This document shows, in pieces, positions 1 through 13,017 of a DNA stretch of 13,017 nucleotides (position 1 is its first letter; each line of letters begins with the position of its first letter). The stretch comes from a virus (lineage: Duplodnaviria; Heunggongvirae; Uroviricota; Caudoviricetes), in the IMG/VR virus record IMGVR_UViG_2698536418_000004, positions 1-13,017 of that record. One strand, given 5' to 3'. Position numbers and translations under genes: made by a program. A model generated the notes under the pieces. The model had not been told where the DNA came from, did not search any database, and saw only the letters and a list, made by a program, of their open reading frames with translations.

Positions 1-14
1 CGGATATCCTGCAT
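1..14 (-). CDS. L: 5' end of a second copy of minor tail protein L (start codon plus 4 codons; rest lies off the left edge)
   Basis: Reverse complement of 1-14 reads ATG CAG GAT ATC CG (M Q D I R), the same start as the L-derived ORF at 1335, and overlaps the stop of the M copy at 14-16. Positions 1-13 align with 1322-1334. Confidence 0.5.
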
Positions 15-343
15 CAGTTCACCACCTGTTCAAACTCTGCGCTGAACTCAACACGCAGCATACTGACCCGCGACGACCATTTTGCGCAGGTCACCTTTAT
101 CTGCCGGTAGCCATAAGGCGGCGTCCACAGAAAGGCCTTCCAGCCCCCGTGCTCAGCCAGAAACGACTCCAGCGCCGCGGCCTCCCAACGGGGAACAGAA
201 AGCGTCACGCTGTACGTTTTCAGGTCAGTGTTCAGCCCGGCAGGCGCTCGCTGGGAATAGCCATCACCAAAGCGCACCTTTCTTACGGAAGGGGCAGAAG
301 CCACATCCATACCGGGTTTCACTTTCCAGCGGAAGGTTTTCAT
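14..343 (-). CDS. M: minor tail protein M (second, diverged copy inside the duplicated unit)
   Basis: 109-aa ORF, same length as lambda gpM and near-identical to my recollection of it (MKTFRWKVKPGMDV..., ...SRVSMLRVEFSAEFEQVVN). Differs from the copy at 1335-1664 at 9 of 109 residues. Start overlaps the stop of the upstream ORF. Confidence 0.9.
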   Translation of the reverse strand: MKTFRWKVKPGMDVASAPSVRKVRFGDGYSQRAPAGLNTDLKTYSVTLSVPRWEAAALESFLAEHGGWKAFLWTPPYGYRQIKVTCAKWSSRVSMLRVEFSAEFEQVVN

Positions 344-1335
344 CGTCCACCTCCGGAGAACAGACCACCATCGCGCATCTGCCCGGTCACAACATCCATT
401 GCCGCCTTACGGGCTACGTCATAAACAGCCTTCAGTGCCTGTGGCCCTATCTGACCGTTCGTGCCGTCGTTGTTAATCACCACATGGTTATTCTGCTCAA
501 ACGTCCCGGACGCCTGCGACCGGCTGTCCGCCATGCTGCCCGGTGTACCGACATAACCGCCGGTGGCATAGCCGCGCATCAGCCGGTAGAGATTCCCCAC
601 GCCAATCCGTCTGGTTGCCTCCTTCGTGAAGACGAATTCACCGCGGTGAACAATTCCCGCTGGCTCATATTTGCCGCCGGTTCCCGTAAATCCTCCGGTT
701 GCAAAATGGAATTTCGCCGCAGCTGCCTGAATGGCTGTACCGCCTGATGCGGATGCGCCGCCACCAACAGCCCCGCCAATGGCGCTACCGATACTCCCGA
801 CAATCCCCACCATTGCCTGCTTAAGCAGAATTTCTGTCATCATGGACAGCACGGAACGGGTGAAGCTGCGCCAGTTCTGCTCACTGCCGGTCAGCATCGC
901 AGCGCTCAGTTCGCTGCACTGCTCGATGCGCCAGCGGCTGATCACCTCCTGCTCCGGATCGGCGTAACTGTTTCCGTTGACGAAGTTCACCGCATCCAGA
1001 AAACGGGCGTAAACCTTACGCCGGACCACCGTTCCGCCGACCAGACTCTGCATATCTTCCGCCATCCCGGTGACCATACCGTACAGGTTAGAAACCGTCA
1101 GCGTGGGGCGCGTACTGGTGCCTTTGCCATTCAGTTCAAAACCGCTCCCCTGAATGGGATACGGCTGATACTGTCGCCCCTGCCAGGTGACCGGCTCACC
1201 TTTTTCGTTCTGCTCATTACAGAAAAAATAACGTTCTCCACCGACCTCTGTCAGGTCGATTTCCCAGAGCACCACGCTGGCCGACTGCTCCGCACGGGTG
1301 CATTCATTCAGTGTTTCCTGCCGGATATCCTGCAT
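340..1335 (-). CDS. in-frame chimera: N-terminal 145 codons of tail-tip protein L fused to C-terminal 186 codons of tape measure protein H
   Basis: Residues 1-145 (MQDIRQETLNECTRAEQSASVVLWEIDL ... RWRIEQCSELSA) match the lambda gpL N-terminus. From residue 146 (AMLTGSEQNWRSFTRSVLSMMTEILLKQAMVGIVG ... MRDGGLFSGGGR) the sequence is the C-terminal tail of gpH, as in the intact H gene at 1661-2221. Nucleotide junction lies between 900 and 901. The Cys-rich C-terminal part of gpL is absent. Confidence 0.8.
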   Translation of the reverse strand: MQDIRQETLNECTRAEQSASVVLWEIDLTEVGGERYFFCNEQNEKGEPVTWQGRQYQPYPIQGSGFELNGKGTSTRPTLTVSNLYGMVTGMAEDMQSLVGGTVVRRKVYARFLDAVNFVNGNSYADPEQEVISRWRIEQCSELSAAMLTGSEQNWRSFTRSVLSMMTEILLKQAMVGIVGSIGSAIGGAVGGGASASGGTAIQAAAAKFHFATGGFTGTGGKYEPAGIVHRGEFVFTKEATRRIGVGNLYRLMRGYATGGYVGTPGSMADSRSQASGTFEQNNHVVINNDGTNGQIGPQALKAVYDVARKAAMDVVTGQMRDGGLFSGGGR

Positions 1336-2221
1336 CAGTTCACCACCTGTTCAAACTCTGCGCTGAACTCAACACGTAACATACTGACCCGCGATGTCCA
1401 TTTTGCGCAGGTCACCCTGATCTGCCGCCAGCCATAAGGCGGCGTCCACAGAAAGGCTTTCCAGCCCCCGTGCTCAGCCAGAAACGACTCCAGCGCCCTG
1501 GCCTCCTCGCGGGAGACAGAAAGCGTCACGCTGTACGTTTTCAGGTCAGCATTCAGCCCGGCAGGCGCACGCTGGGAATAGCCATCACCAAAGCGCACCT
1601 CCCTGACGGAAGGAGCCGATGTCACATCCATCCCGGGTTTCACTTTCCAGCGGAAGGTTTTCATCGTCCACCTCCGGAGAACAAGCCACCATCACGCATC
1701 TGTGCCTGAATTTCATCACGGGCACCCTTGCGGGCCATGTCATACACAGCCTTCAGCGCCTGTGGTCCAATCTGCCCGTTCGTGCCGTCGTTGTTAATCA
1801 CCACATGGTTATTCTGCTCAAACTTCCCGGACGCCTGCGACCGGCTGTCCGCCAGACTGCCCGGTGTACCGACATAACCGCCGGTGGCATAGCCGCGCAT
1901 AAGCCGGTAAAGATTCCCCACGCCAATCCGGCTGGTTGCCTCCTTCGTGAAGACAAACTCACCACGGTGAACAATCCCCGCTGGCTCATATTTGCCGCCG
2001 GTTCCCGTAAATCCTCCGGTCGCAAAATGGAATTTCGCCGCAGCTGCCTGAATGGCTGTACCGCCTGATGCGGATGCGCCGCCACCAACAGCCCCGCCAA
2101 TGGCGCTACCGATACTCCCGACAATCCCCACCATTGCCTGCTTAAGCAGAATTTCTGTCATCATGGACAGCACGGAACGGGTGAAGCTGCGCCAGTTCTG
2201 CTCACTGCCGGTCAGCATCGC
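1322..2221. repeat. direct repeat, copy 1 of the duplicated unit (3' end of H, all of M, start of L)
   Basis: Partner of 1-900 at offset 1321. Similarity ends abruptly after 2221/900, where copy 1 continues as H (tgccatattctgtgc) and copy 2 continues as L (agcgctcagttcgct). Confidence 0.9.
1335..1664 (-). CDS. M: minor tail protein M
   Basis: 109-aa ORF near-identical to lambda gpM along its whole length. Stop overlaps the ATG of the L-derived ORF (TGATG); start overlaps the H stop. Confidence 0.93.
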   Translation of the reverse strand: MKTFRWKVKPGMDVTSAPSVREVRFGDGYSQRAPAGLNADLKTYSVTLSVSREEARALESFLAEHGGWKAFLWTPPYGWRQIRVTCAKWTSRVSMLRVEFSAEFEQVVN

Positions 2222-4276
2222 TGCCATATTCTGTGCAATACCGTCAAAGGTCTGCGTGGCCACGCTTTTTACCTGCGAAAAACTGTCCGTCGCACTTTCC
2301 GCCCACTCACCCCAGCCGGACTTCATCCCGGCCATCCAGCTTCCACGAAGCTGCTCCTCCGCAGACCAGGTGTTCTTCAGTGCAGATGTGGCCTTCGCCA
2401 GCGCATCCGGATTATCACCGTACACCTCACGAAGGCGCTGCTCTTCCGACTCCCGCTGCGCCTGACGGTCGGTGAGTCCGCGGGCTTTTGCGCTGATTGC
2501 CGCCTGCTTCGCACTCTGCTGCTGTTCAAACCGCGCCGCCTGCTGTGCCAGCTCATTCAGCCGTTTCTGGTGTTCAACCTTGTCGCCCAGCTCAGCCAGC
2601 TGGCGTTTGTACTCCAGCGTCTCTTTCTCATGAGCCAGCAGGGATTTTTCCTGCTCAGATAACTGCCGTTTCGTGGCGGCCTCTTTCAGGACCACATACT
2701 GATTTTCCGCTTTCCATAAATCCCGGCGCTGCTGGCTGATTTTTTCATTCGCACCGCTGTGCTTCTCCAGCGTCCTGAGCTCAGTTTCAAGCGACAGCAT
2801 GGCTGCATGCGCCCGGTCTTCCTGGCGCTCACCGGCAGACACCTTCACACCTGACGGCTTTTTCTGCGTCGATTCATAATCCTTTTTTGCCGACGCCATC
2901 AGCGTGTTGTAATCCGCCTGCAGGATTTTTCCGTCTTTCAGGGCCCTATTCAGCTCTTCCTGCCGGGCGGTATATTTCTCCAGTGGCGTCAGCAGGCGCT
3001 CATACGCCTTCTGCGCCTCTCCGGTATACTTCAGCTGTGACGACTCACGCTCAGCCCTGTCCCTTGCCGCCAGTTCACCGGCTTTTTCCATATCCGACTG
3101 CAGCGTTGCCGCTGCCAGACCCAGACGGGCATTTTCCCGGTCATCCCATGCGCCCTGAAGGTTGGCCCGGAAAGAGGAGGTTTTACCGCGGCGCTGGCTC
3201 CGGCTCTGGTACCACTGCCATTTTTTATCCGCCTCATCAAATGCCTTCTGCGCACTGGCGAGCATATCCGCTGAGGATTCCGGACGACCGATATCCAGGA
3301 TGGCATCCCACATCGATTTGAACGCCTTCCCTGTTTTATCCGCCCAGGTCTCCAGCGTCCCCATGTTTTCTTTCAGGCGACGGGTCTGCTCATCAAAGCC
3401 TTTCGTGGCAATATCGTTCGCCGCCTGCAATGCCCCGGCCTCATCACCGGAACGCTGTAACTGTGCAACATACGCAATCTGCTCTGCCGTCACGTTATGG
3501 AACAGCTTCGCCATCGCAATCAGCCCCGACGTCGGGTCAGTGGTCAGTTTTCCGAAAGCCTCTGCAACCTTGTCCACCTCCACGTCGGATGCAGAAGCAA
3601 AACGCGCGACACTCTGGTTGATGGCATCAAACTGTTCACCACCACGCACACCGGCATTCACCATGGCTGCCAGTGACTCTCTCGCCTGGTTAAACGTCAG
3701 CCCCGCGGCCTGTCCGGCTCTGGAGAGCGTCAGCATGCGATCGGCAGTCAGTCCGGACTGATTACCGGAAAGAACCAGCGTTTTATTAAATTCTGAAAGC
3801 GTGGCGTCGCCCCGGTACCAGGCATACGCCAGCACCCCCGTGGCAGCAGCAAGCGCACCAATTCCGACAGCAGGCAGCGAGACGGCCCCAGCCAGTCCCC
3901 GGAACATGGGGATCATCCCACCGAACGAGTCCTTAATCTGCCCGCCCTGTTGCAGCAGAATTAGCCAGGGATTCTGACCACCGGCAAGCTGCGTGGTCAC
4001 GTCGGTGAACTGCATGGGTAGCGTACGCATGGCCGCTTTATACTGCCCGACGGAAATCCCGGCTTTTTGTGCAGCCAGCGCCTGACGGCTCAGCCCCTGC
4101 TCAACAGCAGCGGCCTGTTTCTTAAAAGACTGGCTGACACGCACGGCCATCAAATCCGCAAGGTCACTGGCTTCACCCAGTTCTTTCTTTACCCGTGCAG
4201 CCTCTTCAGAAAAACGGGTTGAATCCAGTGTAAGAACAGCTGTCAGATCGGCAAAATTACCCGCCATAGCGTACAC
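1661..4276 (-). CDS. H: tail tape measure protein
   Basis: 871-aa ORF (lambda gpH is about 853 aa). Long blocks match remembered gpH: SRQALAAQKAGISVGQYKAAMR, FNKTLVLSGNQSGLTADRML, VEVDKVAEAFGKLTTDPTSGL, KISQQRRDLWKAE, and the Gly-rich C-terminal segment GIVGSIGSAIGGAVGGGASASGG. Start overlaps the end of the T frame. Confidence 0.95.
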   Translation of the reverse strand: MYAMAGNFADLTAVLTLDSTRFSEEAARVKKELGEASDLADLMAVRVSQSFKKQAAAVEQGLSRQALAAQKAGISVGQYKAAMRTLPMQFTDVTTQLAGGQNPWLILLQQGGQIKDSFGGMIPMFRGLAGAVSLPAVGIGALAAATGVLAYAWYRGDATLSEFNKTLVLSGNQSGLTADRMLTLSRAGQAAGLTFNQARESLAAMVNAGVRGGEQFDAINQSVARFASASDVEVDKVAEAFGKLTTDPTSGLIAMAKLFHNVTAEQIAYVAQLQRSGDEAGALQAANDIATKGFDEQTRRLKENMGTLETWADKTGKAFKSMWDAILDIGRPESSADMLASAQKAFDEADKKWQWYQSRSQRRGKTSSFRANLQGAWDDRENARLGLAAATLQSDMEKAGELAARDRAERESSQLKYTGEAQKAYERLLTPLEKYTARQEELNRALKDGKILQADYNTLMASAKKDYESTQKKPSGVKVSAGERQEDRAHAAMLSLETELRTLEKHSGANEKISQQRRDLWKAENQYVVLKEAATKRQLSEQEKSLLAHEKETLEYKRQLAELGDKVEHQKRLNELAQQAARFEQQQSAKQAAISAKARGLTDRQAQRESEEQRLREVYGDNPDALAKATSALKNTWSAEEQLRGSWMAGMKSGWGEWAESATDSFSQVKSVATQTFDGIAQNMAAMLTGSEQNWRSFTRSVLSMMTEILLKQAMVGIVGSIGSAIGGAVGGGASASGGTAIQAAAAKFHFATGGFTGTGGKYEPAGIVHRGEFVFTKEATSRIGVGNLYRLMRGYATGGYVGTPGSLADSRSQASGKFEQNNHVVINNDGTNGQIGPQALKAVYDMARKGARDEIQAQMRDGGLFSGGGR

Positions 4277-5119
4277 CTCCTGGAATTCCCTCAGACACCA
4301 TCATCAGCATGGCTTCATCCTCTGTACTGCTCCGCATGTCATCACTGACCATAACGATTTCCTTCCCGTCAGCCCCAAAGCGGACACCACCAGAAAGACC
4401 TGCCGCTTTCCGCATCAGCATATCGTCCTCATCCGGCATCTCCGTCTGCTCATCATCACGTCGGGGTGCCAGCAGACTGAAATCAGAGGGATGCATATCC
4501 GGATCGCAAAAAAACAGGCTGAGTACAGCGTACGTCAGCCCGGAAAAATGCATATCCAGCTGGGTATCCTGAAAATAATGCGTGCGGTAAAAACGGTGCC
4601 AGTCGGCATATTCGGTGGATGTCATCCCGGCAAGCATGGCGCGCCAGTCGGGTCTCCCCATCTCACGCGCCAGTCTGAGGGCAAAGTTCAGCTCACCGTC
4701 GAAGACTTTCCCGCAGAAAAATCATCATCAGTCAGCGTGTTATTTTTCGCCACTTCAGTAATATCAGTATCCGGACGAACAGCTTCGATCATCCCGGACA
4801 GGCACAACACCACGTCTTCCGCCCGGGCAATGGCATCGGCAGGCCAGGTGGTGAGCACTTCCTGCTCTATCTTCATCACGGCCTCATTCATTGACGGTGA
4901 CTGCGTTTTCTGTGGATGGTTATGCCACAGGGACATCGCCACCAGAAACGCGCCGGTTCTGACAAGATCTTCCACACTCACCTGCAGGTTGCCGCTGGCT
5001 TCAGCCTCTTCTGCCCGCCGTTTCAGGAGGGCAAGATGCTCAATACGCTGCAGCGCAGACAGCTCAGAAAGCGTGACGGATACACCGTTATATTCAAATT
5101 GTTCTGTTTTCAGGAACAT
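4257..5119 (-). CDS. G-T: tail assembly chaperone G-T, made by programmed -1 ribosomal frameshift (G frame 5119 to 4706, then T frame to 4257)
   Basis: Slippery heptamer G GGA AAG on the minus strand at 4712-4706, in the G frame just before the G stop. After a -1 shift the frame reads GKVFDGELNFALRLAREMGRPDWRAMLAGMTSTEYADWHRFY..., matching lambda gpT, and runs open to the stop at 4257. Confidence 0.8.
4688..5119 (-). CDS. G: tail assembly chaperone G
   Basis: 143-aa ORF: MFLKTEQFEYNGVSVTLSELSALQRIEHLAL ... AFLVAMSLWHNHPQKTQSPSMNEAV ... SAGKSSTVS, matching lambda gpG from start to stop. Confidence 0.93.
   Translation of the reverse strand: MFLKTEQFEYNGVSVTLSELSALQRIEHLALLKRRAEEAEASGNLQVSVEDLVRTGAFLVAMSLWHNHPQKTQSPSMNEAVMKIEQEVLTTWPADAIARAEDVVLCLSGMIEAVRPDTDITEVAKNNTLTDDDFSAGKSSTVS
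4706..4712 (-). other. -1 programmed frameshift slippery heptamer (G GGA AAG)
   Basis: Plus strand 4706-4712 is ctttccc, reverse complement gggaaag, read G GGA AAG in the G frame 6 codons before the G stop. Same heptamer and relative position as the lambda G/G-T recoding site. Confidence 0.8.
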
Positions 5120-5137
5120 CGCTTATCTCTCAGCTCT

Positions 5138-5884
5138 TTAGCCACCCGGCACATTATTAACGGTAATTTCAGCCACCGCAGCAAACTGACCATTACCGGA
5201 AATCACAGGGATGCTGACTTTTCCATCCTTAACCCCCGTCACAGTAATCGTCATATCTTTCACGCTAATGGTGGCTTTTGATGGATCGGCGGAAATCGCC
5301 CTGAATGTCTTATCCGTTGCATTTTCCGGTTCCACAGTAACGGTCAGGGTGGTTGTTTTCCCTTTTTCAACCGTACCTGTCGGCGTTACCTTAATCGCAG
5401 TGACCGGCGTAATTTTGCTGCGTTCTTCCGCTACAGAAGGTTTACCCACGTTAGTGACTTTCACCGTGCGGGTGATCACTTCTTTCGCCGTCACGGCCTT
5501 ACCGATACTGCTGACCCAGCCACGAAACACATCCACCGTGCCATTCGGAAAACGGATTTTATAGGCCCGGACATCGCCGCTTTCAAACCAGCCTATAAGC
5601 CCTTTCTGGCCTTCCTCTCCCGGTTTCCAGGCCAGTGTAAAACTGGTATCACCTGCAGATTTCTGTCCCTGCCCGGTCGCGCTCCAGTCCGCGTCTTCAT
5701 CATCCAGGTAGTTATCATCGTAGGATTCTGCCGTCATCTCGCCCGGCGTCAGATCCTTCACCTTAGCCAGTCGCTGCCAGTCATCATCTGACAACGGGTT
5801 GGCATAAGCATCATCCTTGCCGGTGTACACCCATAGTGTGGTGCCGGAACCTTTCACCGGCTCAAGAGGATTTGGTATTGCCAT
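5138..5884 (-). CDS. V: major tail protein with C-terminal Ig-like domain
   Basis: 248-aa ORF with long stretches matching lambda gpV: [103 protein letters not shown]. The C-terminal ~90 aa are Thr/Val-rich, consistent with the Ig-like domain of gpV. Confidence 0.95.
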
Positions 5885-5891
5885 ATCGTCC

Positions 5892-6290
5892 TCACATCTC
5901 GTAGGTAATTTTCCACAGGAGATCTGCCGATCCCCACATCATAAACTCATCATCCCGGCGGTAGTCATACCCCTGAAGATTCATCTTCAGCAGTAACGCA
6001 CTGAGGCCGGGAACCGCCTCCAGCGCAGGAAGGATTTTCTCTTCCATCCACATATCCAGTGCCGAGTCCGGTTCTTTTGCCCTGAGAAAAACTTCAATAT
6101 GCAGTGTCGCCTCCCAGGTCCCCTCATCAACGAACTCGTCAGCAGCAGACGCATCAGTCAGGTAAACAGCAACAGCAGGCAGTTCCTGTTCATCAATAAA
6201 AACCGGGCGGCCGTCAAACCAGCTCACCCGCTCAGAAATATTGTCTTTCAGGGCAGACAGAACTGCCGTCCGTATTTCACGGTGTTTCAT
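5892..6290 (-). CDS. U: tail terminator protein (minor tail protein U)
   Basis: 132-aa ORF (lambda gpU is 131 aa): [38 protein letters not shown] and C-terminal ITYEM match gpU. Confidence 0.93.
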
Positions 6291-6302
6291 ACACCCTCCC
6301 TG

Positions 6303-6932
6303 TCATTTTCTTTTCAGCACCAGGCGTAACTGATGCGTCATGGCTTTCATCATCTGCGCCGGTAATTTTTCCCGGTACATCCGGTCCCGTTCACGTTCAA
6401 AAGTTTCTGCCAGCGGTCCGGCAGTCGGAATTTTCACCACTTCAATCGGCAGACGGTAGCGTTTCGGCCTCCCTTTGCTGTCAGCACCGGTGGACGATGG
6501 TGCCCACGGCATACGCTGCATCACATGCCAGCGTCCGTTAGCCAGCCGGGTGATAAAGGCGTCCGGGATCCGTCTTTTCCCCACAATCAGCACACTGCCG
6601 CCCCCTTTCTTGACCGAACGCTCGCCTTTCTTTCGTCGCTTTCTGCGGGAAAGCCGCACGCTGGCCGTCCCCAGTTTTATGGCGGGCAGATTACCGGTGT
6701 TGATGATGACCTTCGCATAAATCCTGTCTGCGCTAGCCCGTTGCAGGCGGATACGCTCACGGATGAGACGGCGCGGAACCGCCAGCTCCCTGGCAACCGA
6801 AGAGGCCGTTTTCGCGATGATGGACTCCGCCACACGGTTAAGTGTCGTGGCGGCAGCCCGGGGAACGGCACGGCGGTCAATTGCATCCAGATTTTTCATG
6901 GCCTGCGCCAGACCTTTTATTGCCATACTCAT
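6303..6932 (-). CDS. Z: tail completion protein Z-like
   Basis: 209-aa ORF: MAIKGL, VPRAAA, NRVA, LSRRKRRKKGERSVKKGGGSVLIVGKRRIPDAFI, NGRWHVMQR and HQLRLVLKR match remembered lambda gpZ (192 aa). The true start may be the ATG two codons downstream (6926), since lambda gpZ begins MAIKGL. Confidence 0.85.
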   Translation of the reverse strand: MSMAIKGLAQAMKNLDAIDRRAVPRAAATTLNRVAESIIAKTASSVARELAVPRRLIRERIRLQRASADRIYAKVIINTGNLPAIKLGTASVRLSRRKRRKKGERSVKKGGGSVLIVGKRRIPDAFITRLANGRWHVMQRMPWAPSSTGADSKGRPKRYRLPIEVVKIPTAGPLAETFERERDRMYREKLPAQMMKAMTHQLRLVLKRK

Positions 6933-7210
6933 TCCTGTTCGACAAAAATCCGGGGTTTACCGTTGTACGTGTCATAACGGGTCACCGTCAGTGTGCGCCC
7001 CGCAAACACAACAACATCATGACGGGCCGGACGGTACCGGGCTGAAAACACCACCAGTGACAACTGGCTGCCCGAAAGCGCCCCCATCTCCGCGGACTCT
7101 TCCTCCGGCATCACGTCATACACGACGCCGTTAATCTCCGCCTGTTTGCCCATCACCCGAACGGTCGCCCCGTCCATCCGGCAACACATTCGCGTAAACA
7201 GATCAGACAT
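6929..7210 (-). CDS. head-tail attachment protein, FII-like (in prophages often annotated 'ATP-binding sugar transporter-like')
   Basis: 93-aa ORF in the FII position between the head genes and Z. Only a weak resemblance to lambda gpFII in overall size and beta-rich composition; the call rests mainly on synteny. Confidence 0.5.
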   Translation of the reverse strand: MSDLFTRMCCRMDGATVRVMGKQAEINGVVYDVMPEEESAEMGALSGSQLSLVVFSARYRPARHDVVVFAGRTLTVTRYDTYNGKPRIFVEQE

Positions 7211-7529
7211 TGATTTTTACCGCCACAGTGGCGCTGTTTGCAGGAGCATTTTCCCAGGCTACCCCCGCGGCCACCGCACCCTCTGCAGCCAGCTGCACAA
7301 CCCCGTCCTTCAGATAAACCACCGCGCCGGACTGAATGTCGTCAGCAGACTGTTTGGGCAGAAGGAACACGCCTTCGGCAAAACCGTCACCGGCATCACC
7401 GGCAGGAATATCTGTAATGGCCACGGCCACCATACTGCCGACCACCACCGCAGCACCGCTCAGGATGGTCTGATCTCCGGCATTCACCAGTTCAATGGTG
7501 GTACCGTCCTGTACAAAATTTTTCGCCAT
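7203..7529 (-). CDS. small Gly/Ala/Val-rich head protein, possibly a decoration/cement protein (DUF2190-like) or FI-position packaging factor
   Basis: 108-aa ORF directly downstream of the capsid gene with a GGAGA ribosome-binding site about 10 nt upstream of the ATG. Sequence (MAKNFVQDGTTIELVNAGDQTILSGAAVVVGS...) does not match lambda gpD or gpFI from memory; function assigned by position and composition only. Confidence 0.4.
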   Translation of the reverse strand: MAKNFVQDGTTIELVNAGDQTILSGAAVVVGSMVAVAITDIPAGDAGDGFAEGVFLLPKQSADDIQSGAVVYLKDGVVQLAAEGAVAAGVAWENAPANSATVAVKINV

Positions 7530-7544
7530 AATGCTGTTTCTCCG

Positions 7545-7594
7545 GACAGCCCCTGTGGGGCTGTTTTTCAGGCATAAAAAAAGCCCTTTCGGGC
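7545..7594. terminator. pair of GC-rich hairpins with flanking T/A runs in the capsid-to-decoration intergenic gap; possible bidirectional or partial terminator
   Basis: Plus strand 7546-7564 acagcccc-tgt-ggggctgt (8-bp stem) followed by ttttt. 7576-7594 aaaaaaa-gccc-tttc-gggc, which on the minus strand is GCCC-GAAA-GGGC followed by TTTTTTT. This is the only intergenic gap over 20 nt in the window. Confidence 0.4.
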
Positions 7595-7664
7595 AGTGAT
7601 TGTGATAACTCGGTTATCAGGCCACCGACGAACGCACCAGCCCGCGCCAGTCAAGTGGTGCCAC

Positions 7665-9596
7665 TCAGGCATCAATACGGATTTTTGTGGCAATGCCGTC
7701 AGTGGTGAAACCTTCCTGCTGATCAATGTATGGCGTGTCCACACCATCCAGCCAGGCCACTTCAATGGTGTCAGTGCCCTGTGCCGCCGCCAGATACCAG
7801 GTTTTCGGATCTGCCGCATCAAGACGCGCTTCTGCAATCACCTCAGCAAAGTTCTGGATGGGGTTAATGACACCGGCGTTTGCATCCGCCCCTTTCACAC
7901 TGGCCGATTTGATGGTCTGGTTCGCCACCGTCTCCAGTGCCACCGGTACCAGCATAAAGGCCGGACGGATATTCAGGGCGCGATCGCCTTCTTTCTGCAG
8001 GCGCATCATCTGACGGGCCGCATCCAGTCCGGAAACGGAAATCCCACCGGTGGCAATATTTTTGTGATCGGCATGGAACAGCGCCTTACCGTCTGACAGT
8101 TTCGGGTTATCCGTCAGCACCTTGTAAACCAGGTCACCAATCGTTGCCTTCGCCGCACGCCCCATCTTCATCGGCACGTCCACCAGCATATTCAGATCAT
8201 CATTGATAATGGCCTGGCGGGTGATGGAGAAAATCTCCCCGTAAGTGGCCAGTGCAATGGTCTCCTTGCGATCTGAGGTGGTGATGTATTTATACTCCGC
8301 CCCCTCACGAACCTGGCGCAGAGAACCAAAACCGCCCATCCCCACGCGATACGCTGTTTTGAAGTCTGACAGGCGTCCCTTACGGGTCCACTTCTGGAAG
8401 GTTTCTTCTGATTCCTCCCAGCCCTGGATCAGCCCCTTGTTCGACACATCCAGCAGAATATTGCCAAAATCAGAGGTGCTGTGCGTCAGCGCCAGCCCGA
8501 CCATCTGCATGGGGTTATAACTGGCCACCCCAATACCGCGCTCCGTCAGTGACATGCGAGCCCATTCACGCAGGGTCATCCCGTTATAGGCGTTATCCTT
8601 CTCGACATTTTCAAATCCGGCACGGGCCAGCATCGCCTGGCGGATCCCGTCCCCCACAAAATTGCCGTTTCCGGCATAAATATGAGCCGGTGTATTTTTG
8701 TTGGTCGGCGAGGACTCCTTGCCCATTTCATTCAGCAGACGTTCACGGGCCATTTCCAGCGAACAGTCAGGATCAGCCACGCACTGTGCCTGAAGCGTCT
8801 GATAGCGACCGCCGAACATGGCAAACAGATCGTTAATGCCTGACATGCGGGCTTTCTGTTCTGCCATAACGCGGGCGCGAATGGTCGCCTCATCAGACAC
8901 TGCCGGTACCGGTGATGGTTCTGTTACCGCCGGTGCAGGGATTGTCACTGTGGTATCACGCGGGGCACTGTTGTATGGCTGCGTGATCATATTTCGGATG
9001 GATTCCGGCATCTTTTTAAATTCCTCTGTACGTTTTGACTGAATACATGCCATTGCCTTAACGGCTGGCGTCACCTGGTCTGCAAATCCGTGTGCCAGAC
9101 ACTCGGCACCGGACATCCAGGTCTCATCCGCCAGCATGGCGGCAATTTCATCGGTAGTTTTTCCGGTTTTCTGCGCATATACCGGCACCATAACCGACTC
9201 AAGTTTGTCCAGACGTTCGGCATAAGTGCGCATTTTCTCCGCATCACCACCGCTGATCCCCCAGGGTTTATGGATCATCATGAAGGCATTTTCCGGCATA
9301 ATGACCGTGTCACCGGCCATCGCAATCAGGGATGCCATCGAGGCGGCAACGCCATCCACATACACGGTAATGGCCGCACCGTGATTTTTCAGGGCATTAA
9401 AAATGGCGATGCCTTCAAAGACATCGCCACCCGGTGAGTTGATGTGGAGATTAATGTGGGTGATATCACCCAGGGCATTCATATCGCTGACAAACTGCTT
9501 CGCGGTAACTCCCCAGAAACCAATCTCGTCATAAATATAAATATCCGCCTCACCCTGACCACCCGCCTGCATCCTGAACCAGGATTTATTCTTCAT
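7665..9596 (-). CDS. tripartite capsid gene: ClpP-like prohead protease, scaffold-like linker and HK97-fold major capsid domain in one ORF
   Basis: ORF open from 9758, but the ATG at 9596 (MKNKSWFRMQAGG...) overlaps the portal stop (cagcATGaagaaTAA) and is the likely start, giving about 643 aa. N-terminal ~200 aa carry ClpP/S14 motifs: INSPGGDVFEG, VDGVAASMASLIAMAG (catalytic Ser), MIHKPWG (His). The middle is Pro/Ala/Glu-rich. The C-terminal ~340 aa resemble phage major capsid proteins. Start codon choice is uncertain (9596 versus 9572 or upstream). Confidence 0.8.
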   Translation of the reverse strand: MKNKSWFRMQAGGQGEADIYIYDEIGFWGVTAKQFVSDMNALGDITHINLHINSPGGDVFEGIAIFNALKNHGAAITVYVDGVAASMASLIAMAGDTVIMPENAFMMIHKPWGISGGDAEKMRTYAERLDKLESVMVPVYAQKTGKTTDEIAAMLADETWMSGAECLAHGFADQVTPAVKAMACIQSKRTEEFKKMPESIRNMITQPYNSAPRDTTVTIPAPAVTEPSPVPAVSDEATIRARVMAEQKARMSGINDLFAMFGGRYQTLQAQCVADPDCSLEMARERLLNEMGKESSPTNKNTPAHIYAGNGNFVGDGIRQAMLARAGFENVEKDNAYNGMTLREWARMSLTERGIGVASYNPMQMVGLALTHSTSDFGNILLDVSNKGLIQGWEESEETFQKWTRKGRLSDFKTAYRVGMGGFGSLRQVREGAEYKYITTSDRKETIALATYGEIFSITRQAIINDDLNMLVDVPMKMGRAAKATIGDLVYKVLTDNPKLSDGKALFHADHKNIATGGISVSGLDAARQMMRLQKEGDRALNIRPAFMLVPVALETVANQTIKSASVKGADANAGVINPIQNFAEVIAEARLDAADPKTWYLAAAQGTDTIEVAWLDGVDTPYIDQQEGFTTDGIATKIRIDA

Positions 9597-11088
9597 GCTG
9601 GCTGTCGGTGGCCTGCTGACGCTGTTGTTCAGTTCCGGCACTGTTGCCTCCTTTGTCGTTGACGGGGTCAGTATCAAAGACCAGCCCCAGTCTGCTGTTT
9701 TCATCAATTTCAGCCTTGCGGCGACGTTTGACCTCATCCGGATTGCGCCCGCCGGCACGCACCCAGTCAGATTCTGTCGCTACACCACCCCGGATCTGAA
9801 TTCTCCAGGCTTCAGCTTCCTTAACCGGGTCGATCCACGGCATCACCGGACCGGAATACGTCGCGTTATATAGCGTTTTCATCTCCACATCCGCCGGAAT
9901 TTTCAGCAGACCTGCCGCAACCACCATATTCAGCCATGTCCGGTACACCGGACGGGTTACCGCGCCAATAAAACAGTCCTGCAGGATCAGGTAACCATCC
10001 GTGGACTCGACCAGCTCCTGCCGCTGGGCACTGTAGGTGCCGTTATAGTTACGCGCCGCACTGGAAAAACTCAGACGACTGCCCGCTGCCACTGCACGCA
10101 ACTGGCCGTTGCGGAAAGTTTCAAGGTTGGGATTGGGACGGTCTGATTTGACCATGCCGATATCCTCGCCCTTGCGCAAATCGTCATAAATAATACCCGG
10201 GGTGATATGGACTTCCCGGTCGGTTTCTTTGATCCCCGGCTCTTCATAGTCCTGCCCGTCACCTTTACGGATATACAGTCCCAGCGCCGCGGCAATACGC
10301 GCCGCAGTGAGTTCCGCATCCTCATACTCCTTAAGGGCACTGATCCGCATCAGCACCCCCGATAACATGGATGAGCCTCGCGTCTGATGCAGACGACGAG
10401 TGAACTTCAGGTGGATCATTTTTCCGGCAGCGATTTCTTTCGTATCACTCTGCCGGCCGCTGACCGGATAATTTTTATAAACCAGATATTTTTTCGGTCT
10501 TCCCCACTCATCAAGAAAAACCCCCTGATTCAGTCCGGCGGATTCATCAGTGCGCATGGGAACAAAATCCGGCTCCATCGCCTCAAGCCAGAATGGCACT
10601 CCCGCCGTCCGTTCCAGACCGTTTCCCGCACCACTGACCATCTGCGCAAACACTTCACCATCCCGCAGCCAGGTCCGCAGCAGTAAACGTTCAAGCACGG
10701 GACGGGTATACTGCCCTGTCACATCCGGACTCACGGACCACTCAGCCCACAACCGGCGGATATCCGCAGCCAGCTCTGCCGCCATTTCCCCGTTTTTTCG
10801 TAATGGCTGAGGCTCCACAATAATTCCCCTGGCACCAATCACCCGCTCTTCCAGCTTGTCAAACACACCAATCACCAGGTCATGATTGATATCCAGAAAA
10901 CGGGCCTGCTCCCGCAGGGAAACCGCACCGTATTTACTGAGCTGATCAGCAGAGCGATTTTCCCGCCGGGCTTTATGTGTCCGGGTCGGTTTCACCGCCT
11001 CATAGGCCATGATTAACGCCCTTGAACGCAGTCTGGCTGCTTTCCAGCCGGGGGAAAACACGCCTATCACATCATCAATAATTGCCAT
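9586..11088 (-). CDS. portal protein
   Basis: 500-aa ORF between the gpW-like gene and the protease-capsid gene; size and position fit a lambda gpB-type portal. Start overlaps the W stop (TAATG). Confidence 0.85.
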   Translation of the reverse strand: MAIIDDVIGVFSPGWKAARLRSRALIMAYEAVKPTRTHKARRENRSADQLSKYGAVSLREQARFLDINHDLVIGVFDKLEERVIGARGIIVEPQPLRKNGEMAAELAADIRRLWAEWSVSPDVTGQYTRPVLERLLLRTWLRDGEVFAQMVSGAGNGLERTAGVPFWLEAMEPDFVPMRTDESAGLNQGVFLDEWGRPKKYLVYKNYPVSGRQSDTKEIAAGKMIHLKFTRRLHQTRGSSMLSGVLMRISALKEYEDAELTAARIAAALGLYIRKGDGQDYEEPGIKETDREVHITPGIIYDDLRKGEDIGMVKSDRPNPNLETFRNGQLRAVAAGSRLSFSSAARNYNGTYSAQRQELVESTDGYLILQDCFIGAVTRPVYRTWLNMVVAAGLLKIPADVEMKTLYNATYSGPVMPWIDPVKEAEAWRIQIRGGVATESDWVRAGGRNPDEVKRRRKAEIDENSRLGLVFDTDPVNDKGGNSAGTEQQRQQATDSQHEE

Positions 11089-11324
11089 TAAAACCTCGCC
11101 AGTTTAAATCCTGGTTTTCCCCGCCTGCGGCTCACCATCGCGGCAAGCCTGCGTTCCCACTCCTGACGTCCGGCGCGGATCTGAGAAAGGCTTTCCAGCG
11201 TCAGTTGCTGTCCGTTGAAGGTGACAGACTTCCCCTCCAGTACGGCCATTTCCGCTTCACGGTACCGCTGTATCATTTCTCTGGCTTCTTCTGTGCTCAC
11301 AACCAGCCTCCTGATGTTATCCAT
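11088..11324 (-). CDS. W: head completion / head-tail joining protein, gpW-like
   Basis: 78-aa ORF between terminase and portal. C-terminus RRRGKPGFKLARF resembles the lambda gpW C-terminus (RRRGPAGFYV); size and position match gpW. Confidence 0.75.
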   Translation of the reverse strand: MDNIRRLVVSTEEAREMIQRYREAEMAVLEGKSVTFNGQQLTLESLSQIRAGRQEWERRLAAMVSRRRGKPGFKLARF

Positions 11325-13017
11325 GGATTATCTTCCGCACGCTCCGTCCGCAGTTTTTTCTTCCGGCGACGGCGTTTTTCTGCCCCGGCCGTCAGTTCCG
11401 GGGATACCGTTTCACCAGAACGCTCCTGCGGGAAGACGAGCCACGTTTCCCGCTGTGCCCAGTCCGGTGCGGAGGGCCAGCGGATCTTTTCGTAACCATG
11501 CAGAACGGCAAGCGCATCCGCATAAACCAGCAGGTCAAACGCCTCGTTAGCTCCCCTGCCCGGTTTTCGCCATTTTCCGTCACTGCCGCGCTCTTCATAG
11601 GTCAGCTCATCGTAAAACCATCGCCCCAGCCAGTCGGGAAAGTGGATATAGTTCGGCCCTGGTGTGTCACGCCACAGGGCATTATTTACACGGTCCTTAA
11701 ACGCATCCGTCTGAACCAGCCACAGCGCGACATCGCCACTGGCTCTGGCACGGCGGGCACTTCTGCCGGTATTATCCGGGAAGGTACGGTTAATCAGCCT
11801 GTCACGGCGAAGTCCATCCCCCTTGAACAGAAACACCCTGTTGCCCAGTCCGTCACTCCGGCAACGACGCCAGAAACGATAGGCGTTATCTGTCACCCCG
11901 GCTTCCCCTCCCGTATCCACCGCCATGGCCATCAGACGCATGCGCACATCCGGATCAGAAGCCAGCGGCCATGTTTTATGGAACACATCCGTCAGCAACA
12001 AATCCCAGTCCTCCGGATATGCCGCCGGATCAACCGGCAGACTTTCACCGTTGGGACTGCAGCGCAGTGAATGCCGGATGTTATAGCGATCAACAATCCA
12101 GCGTTCCCCCTGCTCTCCGTATCCGGTGATCTGCACAACAAAACGGCGATTTTTACCGCCCTGTACGTCAACCGTTGCCTCAATAAAACGCACACCATCC
12201 GGCACAGATCGCCGGGGAAACGGCTCGGCACGCTGTTCAAGCAGTTCACTTTTACGCTGTTCCGTGGCTGAACGGGGCAGATAGGGGCGTCCGATATCGG
12301 TGTTCACCACCGCTTTCAGGGTCTCTTCACTGCCGGTTCGCTCATACTCTTCTTCTGCCGCCAGCAGTTTAAAAATCAGTTGTTCCCAGGTCTGAAACGC
12401 CGCAGCCGGCCCCTCCATCCAGAATGACGCAATCCGGGAATTTCGTGGCGTTCCGGTGATACTGCCGTCCGCCACCGCCCGTTCACCTTCACGAAGCCAG
12501 ATCCCTTTGTTATTCAGTTCGCGTTTCTGCTCAGGGGCAATCAGCCCGCGACAATGCGGACACATCAGACGGGCAGCCTGACCGGCAGCCACAAAATCCG
12601 GGTTATTCCGGTATCCGGTCATGTTATCCATCACCGGCTGAAAATATTCCCCGCAGTGCGGACACGGCCAGTACCACCGGCGGCGGTCTCCCCGGTTATA
12701 CAGTGACAGGATCCCCGTTGTTGGCGGTGCCTCATGTGCGCCGCCACAGCGCCATTTGGTGTCAGTGATATCCCGCCCCGGCGAACTCTCGACCAGGGTC
12801 ATCCCCGAGGACATAAAGGTGGTGGTACGCTTTGATGCCAGGGTGAAGGCATCCCCTTCCCCGTCCACGTTTTCAGGGAAACGGTCATAATCCGTCAGCG
12901 CCACACGACGGTAATCCGTAAGCGTCGTCTCAGCACCGTCTGGCAGATCCTGAAATTCCTGAGAGAATAGTGGACACCAAATATGGTGGACGCTATCCAT
13001 GAAATCATTAACCGCAG
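11297..13017 (-). CDS. A: terminase large subunit (GpA family), 5'-truncated by the window edge
   Basis: ORF open to the right edge with no stop upstream of the first in-window Met. WPCPHCGEYFQP and a following CPHC motif resemble the paired-Cys region I recall in lambda gpA. About 570 codons visible; the N-terminal ATPase segment must lie beyond 13017. Confidence 0.85.
   Translation of the reverse strand, partial: AVNDFMDSVHHIWCPLFSQEFQDLPDGAETTLTDYRRVALTDYDRFPENVDGEGDAFTLASKRTTTFMSSGMTLVESSPGRDITDTKWRCGGAHEAPPTTGILSLYNRGDRRRWYWPCPHCGEYFQPVMDNMTGYRNNPDFVAAGQAARLMCPHCRGLIAPEQKRELNNKGIWLREGERAVADGSITGTPRNSRIASFWMEGPAAAFQTWEQLIFKLLAAEEEYERTGSEETLKAVVNTDIGRPYLPRSATEQRKSELLEQRAEPFPRRSVPDGVRFIEATVDVQGGKNRRFVVQITGYGEQGERWIVDRYNIRHSLRCSPNGESLPVDPAAYPEDWDLLLTDVFHKTWPLASDPDVRMRLMAMAVDTGGEAGVTDNAYRFWRRCRSDGLGNRVFLFKGDGLRRDRLINRTFPDNTGRSARRARASGDVALWLVQTDAFKDRVNNALWRDTPGPNYIHFPDWLGRWFYDELTYEERGSDGKWRKPGRGANEAFDLLVYADALAVLHGYEKIRWPSAPDWAQRETWLVFPQERSGETVSPELTAGAEKRRRRKKKLRTERAEDNPWITSGGWL

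Follow-up and report, generated by a model that had tools for sequence, protein, structure and literature searches.

Lambda-like prophages of E. coli are known to exchange modules as well as short identical tracts, a behaviour referred to as mosaicism. Short-read assembly of such genomes brings in a second source of composite sequences. In a Velvet-type graph, a node placed after a gap adds one base per k-mer and drops the k-1 bases that come first along its direction of travel, and Velvet itself writes at least 10 N for each gap. The authors of a widely used pipeline combining Velvet, SSPACE and GapFiller, in which k is set at 66-90% of the read length, pointed out that greedy steps can create false joins (PMC5320598).

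The locus described here can be compared with several of these systems. With lambdoid mosaicism it has in common that two prophages, designated A and B in the following, share an exact tract amid 6-9% divergence and possess different head modules next to similar tail genes. In this respect nothing about the locus is unusual, and the boundary at positions 700/701 is not the scar of an event that took place here. Homology-facilitated illegitimate recombination and tandem duplication by microhomology would be resembled, if the structure were real, in the combination of one homologous junction with one junction of 4-nt microhomology, and in the net insertion which leaves a tandem repeat. The locus differs from both, however, since the base at the junction contradicts the microhomology, no independent occurrence was found and the breakpoints track landmarks of an assembly graph. 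The likeness to false duplications made during assembly comprises two versions of about 93% identity arranged in series, a shared node, breaks at node edges, a cut of k-1 bases, a filler base and two arms each of which matches a separate locus in finished genomes. It differs from those in that the ‘haplotypes’ are here co-resident prophages of a haploid bacterium, and in that the case is known from the assembled sequence.

The window, 13,017 bp in length, is the entire contig CYCB01000064.1 of the draft E. coli assembly GCA_001283405.1, and both of its ends are therefore assembly breakpoints rather than arbitrary cuts. A literature search for CYCB01 and GCA_001283405 gave no match. The gene order is lambda-like with all genes located on the minus strand. 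At the right side of the contig lie the gene of the terminase gpA (11297-13000), which is cut by an insertion sequence (IS), and the portal gene (9586-11088). They are followed by a single long gene (7665-9758) encoding a fusion of a ClpP-like prohead protease with the major capsid protein (Pfam CLP_protease and Phage_capsid_4); phages of the VT1-Sakai type likewise carry such a ClpP/capsid fusion gene. Between this gene and the tape measure gene H we found the head-tail genes and then Z, U, V, G and T, with G at 4688-5119 and T at 4257-4661. Near the 3′ end of G, the minus strand shows the slippery heptamer GGGAAAG at position 4712, which we take to be the classical -1 programmed frameshift site of lambda G/GT.

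The tape measure gene H (1661-4267, minus strand) encodes a chimeric protein of 868 aa, whose coding sequence is that of prophage A between the start codon and the tract shared by both prophages, and that of prophage B from position 2021 to the stop codon. It is followed on the same strand by the minor tail protein gene M in its prophage-B allele (1335-1664) and by an open reading frame of 331 aa (340-1335), whose translation revealed an in-frame fusion of L and H. This L::H reading frame is composed of the first 145 codons of L (B allele, 902-1335) and the last 186 codons of H (A allele, 340-900), and its product matches Pfam Phage_tail_L and, weakly, Tape_meas_lam_C. The list of open reading frames ends with a second gene M (14-343, minus strand; PF05939), which represents the prophage-A allele. 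At the opposite edge, about 95 nt of an IS66-family element (12919-13017) interrupt the terminase gene, and homology to intact terminases breaks off at about 12918-12922. The contig ends within this IS, as expected of a short-read contig. A sister genome carries an ISEc22-like element at the same place, with the N-terminal remnant of the terminase located beyond it. A second copy of the IS end at the right edge, which would reveal a fork at 13017/13018, was not found in the 54 kb of two sister regions searched.

The initial annotation had described positions 701-900 as identical base for base to 2022-2221, next to about six differences per 100 nt between 601-700 and 1922-2021 and a similar divergence of the two M copies. 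An ungapped comparison at an offset of 1321 confirmed this pattern. Mismatches were absent over the 200 nt of 701-900 (0/200), two were present in 651-700 and four in 601-650 (sites 610, 634, 637, 643, 655 and 700 in total), and the M copy at 14-343 differs from the one at 1335-1664 by 27 nt and 9 aa. All 64 mismatches fall into the comparison of 1-700 with 1322-2021. The divergence is hence unevenly distributed when identity is determined window by window, the check that had been proposed. The C-termini of H encoded by the two copies differ at 10 of 186 aa, every one of them downstream of the identical block, and the similarity of the copies ends sharply at 901 versus 2222, beyond which 33-40 mismatches per 50 nt were counted. 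When 64 mismatches were scattered randomly over 900 sites, a mismatch-free run of at least 200 nt did not occur in any of 200,000 trials, and at the mismatch rate of the flank (9.1%) the probability (1-p)^200 amounts to about 5e-9. The identity gradient is therefore present in the sequence, non-random and not due to chance.

The origin of each segment became apparent from two complete genomes, FDAARGOS_1059 (NZ_CP066032.1) and the O111:H2 strain 12A (NZ_CP077479.1), which are relatives of the sequenced strain and not the same isolate (4 SNPs). Positions 1-900 are 100% identical to 4447376-4448275 of NZ_CP066032.1 and to 3345616-3346515 of NZ_CP077479.1. Positions 2222-13017 (10,796 nt) match 4448276-4459071 (4 SNPs) and 3346516-3357311, respectively, with an identity of 100.0% in both cases. 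In both sister genomes the match of 1-900 directly adjoins the match of 2222-13017, with 0 nt between them. The segment 902-2221, by contrast, shows 100% identity across 1,320 nt with 4725898-4727217 of NZ_CP066032.1 and with 3626850-3628169 of NZ_CP077479.1, where it belongs to a different prophage (B) located about 278 kb from prophage A. The contig thus reads A (1-900), one base, B (902-2221) and A (2222-13017). The first A segment contains the first 14 nt of L, the M allele and the last 186 codons of H; the B segment contains the N-terminal 434 nt of L, M and the C-terminus of H in the B version; and the second A segment extends from the remainder of H through the portal gene to the terminase gene cut by the IS. 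It is the left copy which is native to the right-hand flank, while the right copy is the foreign one. This A-B-A pattern is real in the sequence file but probably not in the bacterium, and the L::H reading frame is probably likewise confined to the assembly. Across the 10,796 nt, differences from prophage A of FDAARGOS_1059 are confined to positions 2946, 7667, 9782 and 11869. The SNP at 2946, located in H, was considered as a prophage-B allele resulting from paralogue collapse, and this was rejected because the base is not that of B.

The junction of 900 with 902 was then searched for elsewhere using a 241-nt query (780-1020), and none of 5,426 complete E. coli genomes gave a contiguous match. 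The part 780-900 on its own is a widespread block, as more than 1,500 genomes contain it with an identity of 99% or higher. Two records matched both halves of the query, NZ_CP148445.1 and NZ_CP104509.1, both from poultry E. coli. In these, a C-terminally truncated H is joined to an N-terminally truncated L and M is lost. They were rejected as carriers of the same junction because these H-L deletions retain the normal gene order and have other breakpoints. Genuine rearrangements between H and L do occur in finished genomes, with different breakpoints. At the protein level, the exact sequence of the L::H fusion was found on CYCB01000064.1 only, among 153 billion indexed gene positions. The chimeric H protein also gave an exact match on this contig only, a result which is weakened by the strain-specific SNP 2946 within H. 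As far as independent genomes and assemblies are concerned, the junction is accordingly represented by one draft contig.

For a comparison of the breakpoints with the structure of an assembly graph, prophages A and B of the sister genome were aligned, every mismatch was listed and a k-mer simulation was performed on the sister sequences. Judged from these two parental prophages, the identical tract comprises 248 nt (2022-2269) and not 200. Prophage B remains identical to the window for 48 nt past 2221, the first mismatch being at 2270; in A-coordinates the run extends over 701-948 and is bounded by A/B mismatches at 700 and 949 (NZ_CP066032.1). The block 701-900 is the first 200 nt of this tract, the left copy of which stops at 900. 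The difference, 248 - 200 = 48, equals k-1 for k=49, a value of k which is deduced solely from the nucleotide sequence. The B segment begins at 902, exactly where the L genes of A and B enter a stretch of 64 identical nt (902-965), just past the polymorphic site equivalent to 901. To the left of 901, A/B mismatches recur every 10-37 nt for at least 270 nt, so that the leftmost node common to both prophages begins at 902 for k of about 37-64, including k=41-63. The contig itself begins at the first base of another A/B-identical run of 55 nt (1-55, also 1322-1376), which is flanked by mismatches at the base before position 1 (equivalent to 1321) and at 56 and which forms a shared node at any k≤55. 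The proposed k=49 fits this limit, which is set independently by the left end of the contig. The nodes shared at k=49 are 902-965 (16 k-mers), 1-55 (7 k-mers), 312-362 (3 k-mers) and the H tract with exactly 200 k-mers.

Two other accounts of these landmarks were set aside. A SPAdes contig with k=55, suggested by the 55-nt run at the left end, was replaced by k=49, as only 248-(k-1)=200 accounts for the cut at 900. A third prophage copy diverging at 2222 might also account for this cut, but the k-1 offset made it unnecessary as an explanation; the sister genome contains 2-3 homologous places in addition to the one place listed per record.

The single base between the A and B segments, an A at 901, matches no parent: the equivalent base is T in H (2222), T in the L gene of B and C in the L gene of A. 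At the join, H reads ATCG-CTGC-CAT and the L gene of B reads TGA-CTGC-GCT, which results in a 4-nt microhomology CTGC, where the contig has CAGC. The A at 901 converts CGCTGCG into its reverse complement CGCAGCG. Base 901 looks like a closed placeholder gap between two node ends; a sequencing error or a repair error are the alternatives.

We regard it as highly probable, at roughly 0.88, that the repeat is a false tandem duplication. During short-read assembly, the two arms of a bubble formed by the A and B paralogues would have been placed in series. The sequenced strain, like its two complete relatives, would carry two lambda-like prophages with L-M-H regions of about 93% identity that have a few exact runs in common, and in a de Bruijn graph the two versions of this region would appear as a succession of bubbles. 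A walk along the minus strand would lead from the H gene of A into the 248-nt shared node and from there into the B arm with the H C-terminus, M and the L N-terminus; read from left to right, the switch from B to A would lie somewhere within 2022-2269. This first path would end at 902, in the last shared node before the paths of A and B part permanently. The displaced A arm, consisting of the shared node, the H C-terminus, M and the 55-nt node, would have been appended behind it, across a gap that was later closed to one base. Appended after a gap, the node would have lost its first k-1 bases, which would leave 200 of the 248 nt in the left copy. The identity gradient would then represent nothing but the shared node, where the copies are identical, followed by the two bubble arms with 6-9% divergence.

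All predictions of this model were observed: the H node appears again at 900 to 701, the first path ends at 902 and the second one at 1. Moreover, the sequence is a draft contig with both ends in repeats (the A/B 55-mer at the left and the IS at the right), each segment is about 100% identical to a separate locus in finished relatives in which the join is absent, and the internal breakpoints lie on a node edge or at the k-1 offset under one and the same k (49). From the segment origins, the absence of the junction and the coincidence of breakpoints with nodes, all of which are direct observations, we infer an assembler with Velvet-like scaffolding and gap filling. That GCA_001283405.1 descends from the Velvet/SSPACE/GapFiller pipeline is an assumption. 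With k set at 66-90% of the read length, a k of 49 would presuppose a read length of about 75 nt. As a Velvet gap comprises at least 10 N, an additional gap-closing step must be assumed for the single A at 901.

An improbable alternative is that the A-B-A arrangement exists in the bacterium and arose when 1.32 kb of the resident prophage B were copied into A by ectopic repair. A double-strand break in the tape measure gene of the decaying prophage would have been repaired with the 248-bp H tract as the homologous anchor, with synthesis proceeding through M into L and an illegitimate join at CTGC, where one base would have been mis-incorporated at the seal. Such an event would be classed either as homology-facilitated illegitimate recombination or as over-copying in the course of gene conversion, and it would leave prophage A, defective as it already was, with a chimeric H, an additional M and L fused in frame to H. 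The topology, with one homologous and one non-homologous junction, is the one that such repair would give; the anchor and the 4-nt CTGC, which illegitimate joining would use as well, do exist, and the donor B is known from the relatives. As IS elements have already degraded prophage A, a change of this kind would be neutral. Rearrangements of H and L are known from the two complete genomes with an H-L deletion, and a strain-specific change is conceivable because the sister genomes are relatives with 4 SNPs. Against a real event stands that the junction occurs neither in the two close relatives nor in any of the 5,426 complete genomes, and that the fusion protein is restricted to one draft contig. 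The base at 901 is an A, whereas both partners of the microhomology have a T. Furthermore, the B segment begins on the edge of a graph node, for which the chance is about 2-4% at the local density of A/B SNPs, and the A segment ends k-1 short of the end of the tract for a k which also fits the left end of the contig. Finally, short-read contigs should normally end, and not continue, at a genuine duplicate of 1.3 kb of B with 100% identity.

The initial annotation had proposed a different sequence of events, namely a duplication, specified here as one of 1,321 bp in situ and in tandem, followed either by an exchange with a related lambdoid phage that replaced everything to the left of about position 700, or by gene conversion of the 200 bp next to the junction. 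The copies are indeed in register at an offset of 1321, with the identical block at the junction and the divergence past it, and a related lambdoid allele is involved, as one copy matches the second prophage B at 100%. We nevertheless consider this explanation very unlikely. The copies did not start out as identical ones; they represent different L-M-H alleles, one per prophage, with about 278 kb between the two loci. Each is found at 100% in the sister genomes, and the copies do not originate from the same locus. The polarity is reversed as well: the supposedly replaced left copy (1-900) is native to the flank 2222-13017, and the foreign copy is the right one (902-2221), which, including its L part, is 100% prophage B up to the junction. 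Conversion at the junction is not needed, because the 248-bp A/B tract exists in genomes without the tandem arrangement. None of the 5,426 complete E. coli genomes was found to hold an intermediate with identical copies. The idea that a 1,321-bp unit comprising the L N-terminus, M and the H C-terminus had truly been duplicated in tandem was dropped for the reason that 1-900 are contiguous with 2222 onwards in the relatives and 902-2221 belong to the other prophage.

Comparing each copy with other prophages, as had been recommended, turned out to be decisive. A different prophage, resident in the sister genomes, does match one of the copies, although it is the right copy and not the left one. 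The suggested breakpoint within the H C-terminal coding region likewise corresponds to a real mosaic boundary at 700/701, but this boundary is historical, occurs as well in genomes without any such tandem and was not made here. We consider the tandem arrangement itself to be, most probably, a product of the assembly. A chimeric molecule or read from library ligation or PCR, which would have given the graph a false edge, has hardly any probability: chimeric molecules typically show an orphan base and a very short microhomology at their joint and the junction is confined to one assembly, but random joining rarely links points 1.3 kb apart in paralogous copies of one gene cluster and would not put both breakpoints on node edges or at a k-1 offset.

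The biology that remains after a false join has been taken into account is ordinary lambdoid mosaicism, represented by a 248-bp exact tract in two co-resident tape measure genes. Prophages A and B have different head modules, and their L-M-H regions are about 91-93% identical. An identical run of 248 nt is far beyond the expectation from the flank, (1-p)^248 being about 5e-11, and it is present independently of CYCB01000064.1. The possibility that the tract is an invariant part of H was addressed with nine lambdoid alleles (A, B, lambda, VT1-Sakai, 1720a-02, Stx2_14744, 204576, PhiR68_2 and Kati). Their mean pairwise divergence is 5-15% in the tract compared to 10-26% in most neighbouring windows of H, a moderate reduction only, and invariance was rejected. 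The identity of A and B in this tract therefore reflects shared ancestry or past exchange.

If the arrangement is an artefact, the L::H reading frame, the chimeric tape measure protein and the ‘duplicated M’ are database artefacts of a public draft genome and should be scored neither as genes gained nor as breakpoints of recombination or new fusion proteins. Breaks at node edges, a cut of k-1 bases, an orphan base and arms matching different prophages of a finished relative would then provide a diagnostic for draft genomes of prophage-rich E. coli. If the A-B-A arrangement were real, it would be a non-reciprocal, partly illegitimate repair event caught in the act of exchanging tail gene segments between co-resident lambdoid prophages.

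The two prophages differ in their state of preservation. Prophage A is degraded, with IS66-family elements interrupting K and the terminase gene; in the sister genome, K is disrupted by IS679. Prophage B is intact and lambda-like, and it possesses a head module of the lambda type with separate C, D and E genes. Downstream of its tail fibre genes, prophage B of NZ_CP066032.1 encodes the effectors cif, nleH and nleB2 and a truncated nleC (4714843-4718397), a type III effector cluster which marks the lineage as EPEC/EHEC-like.
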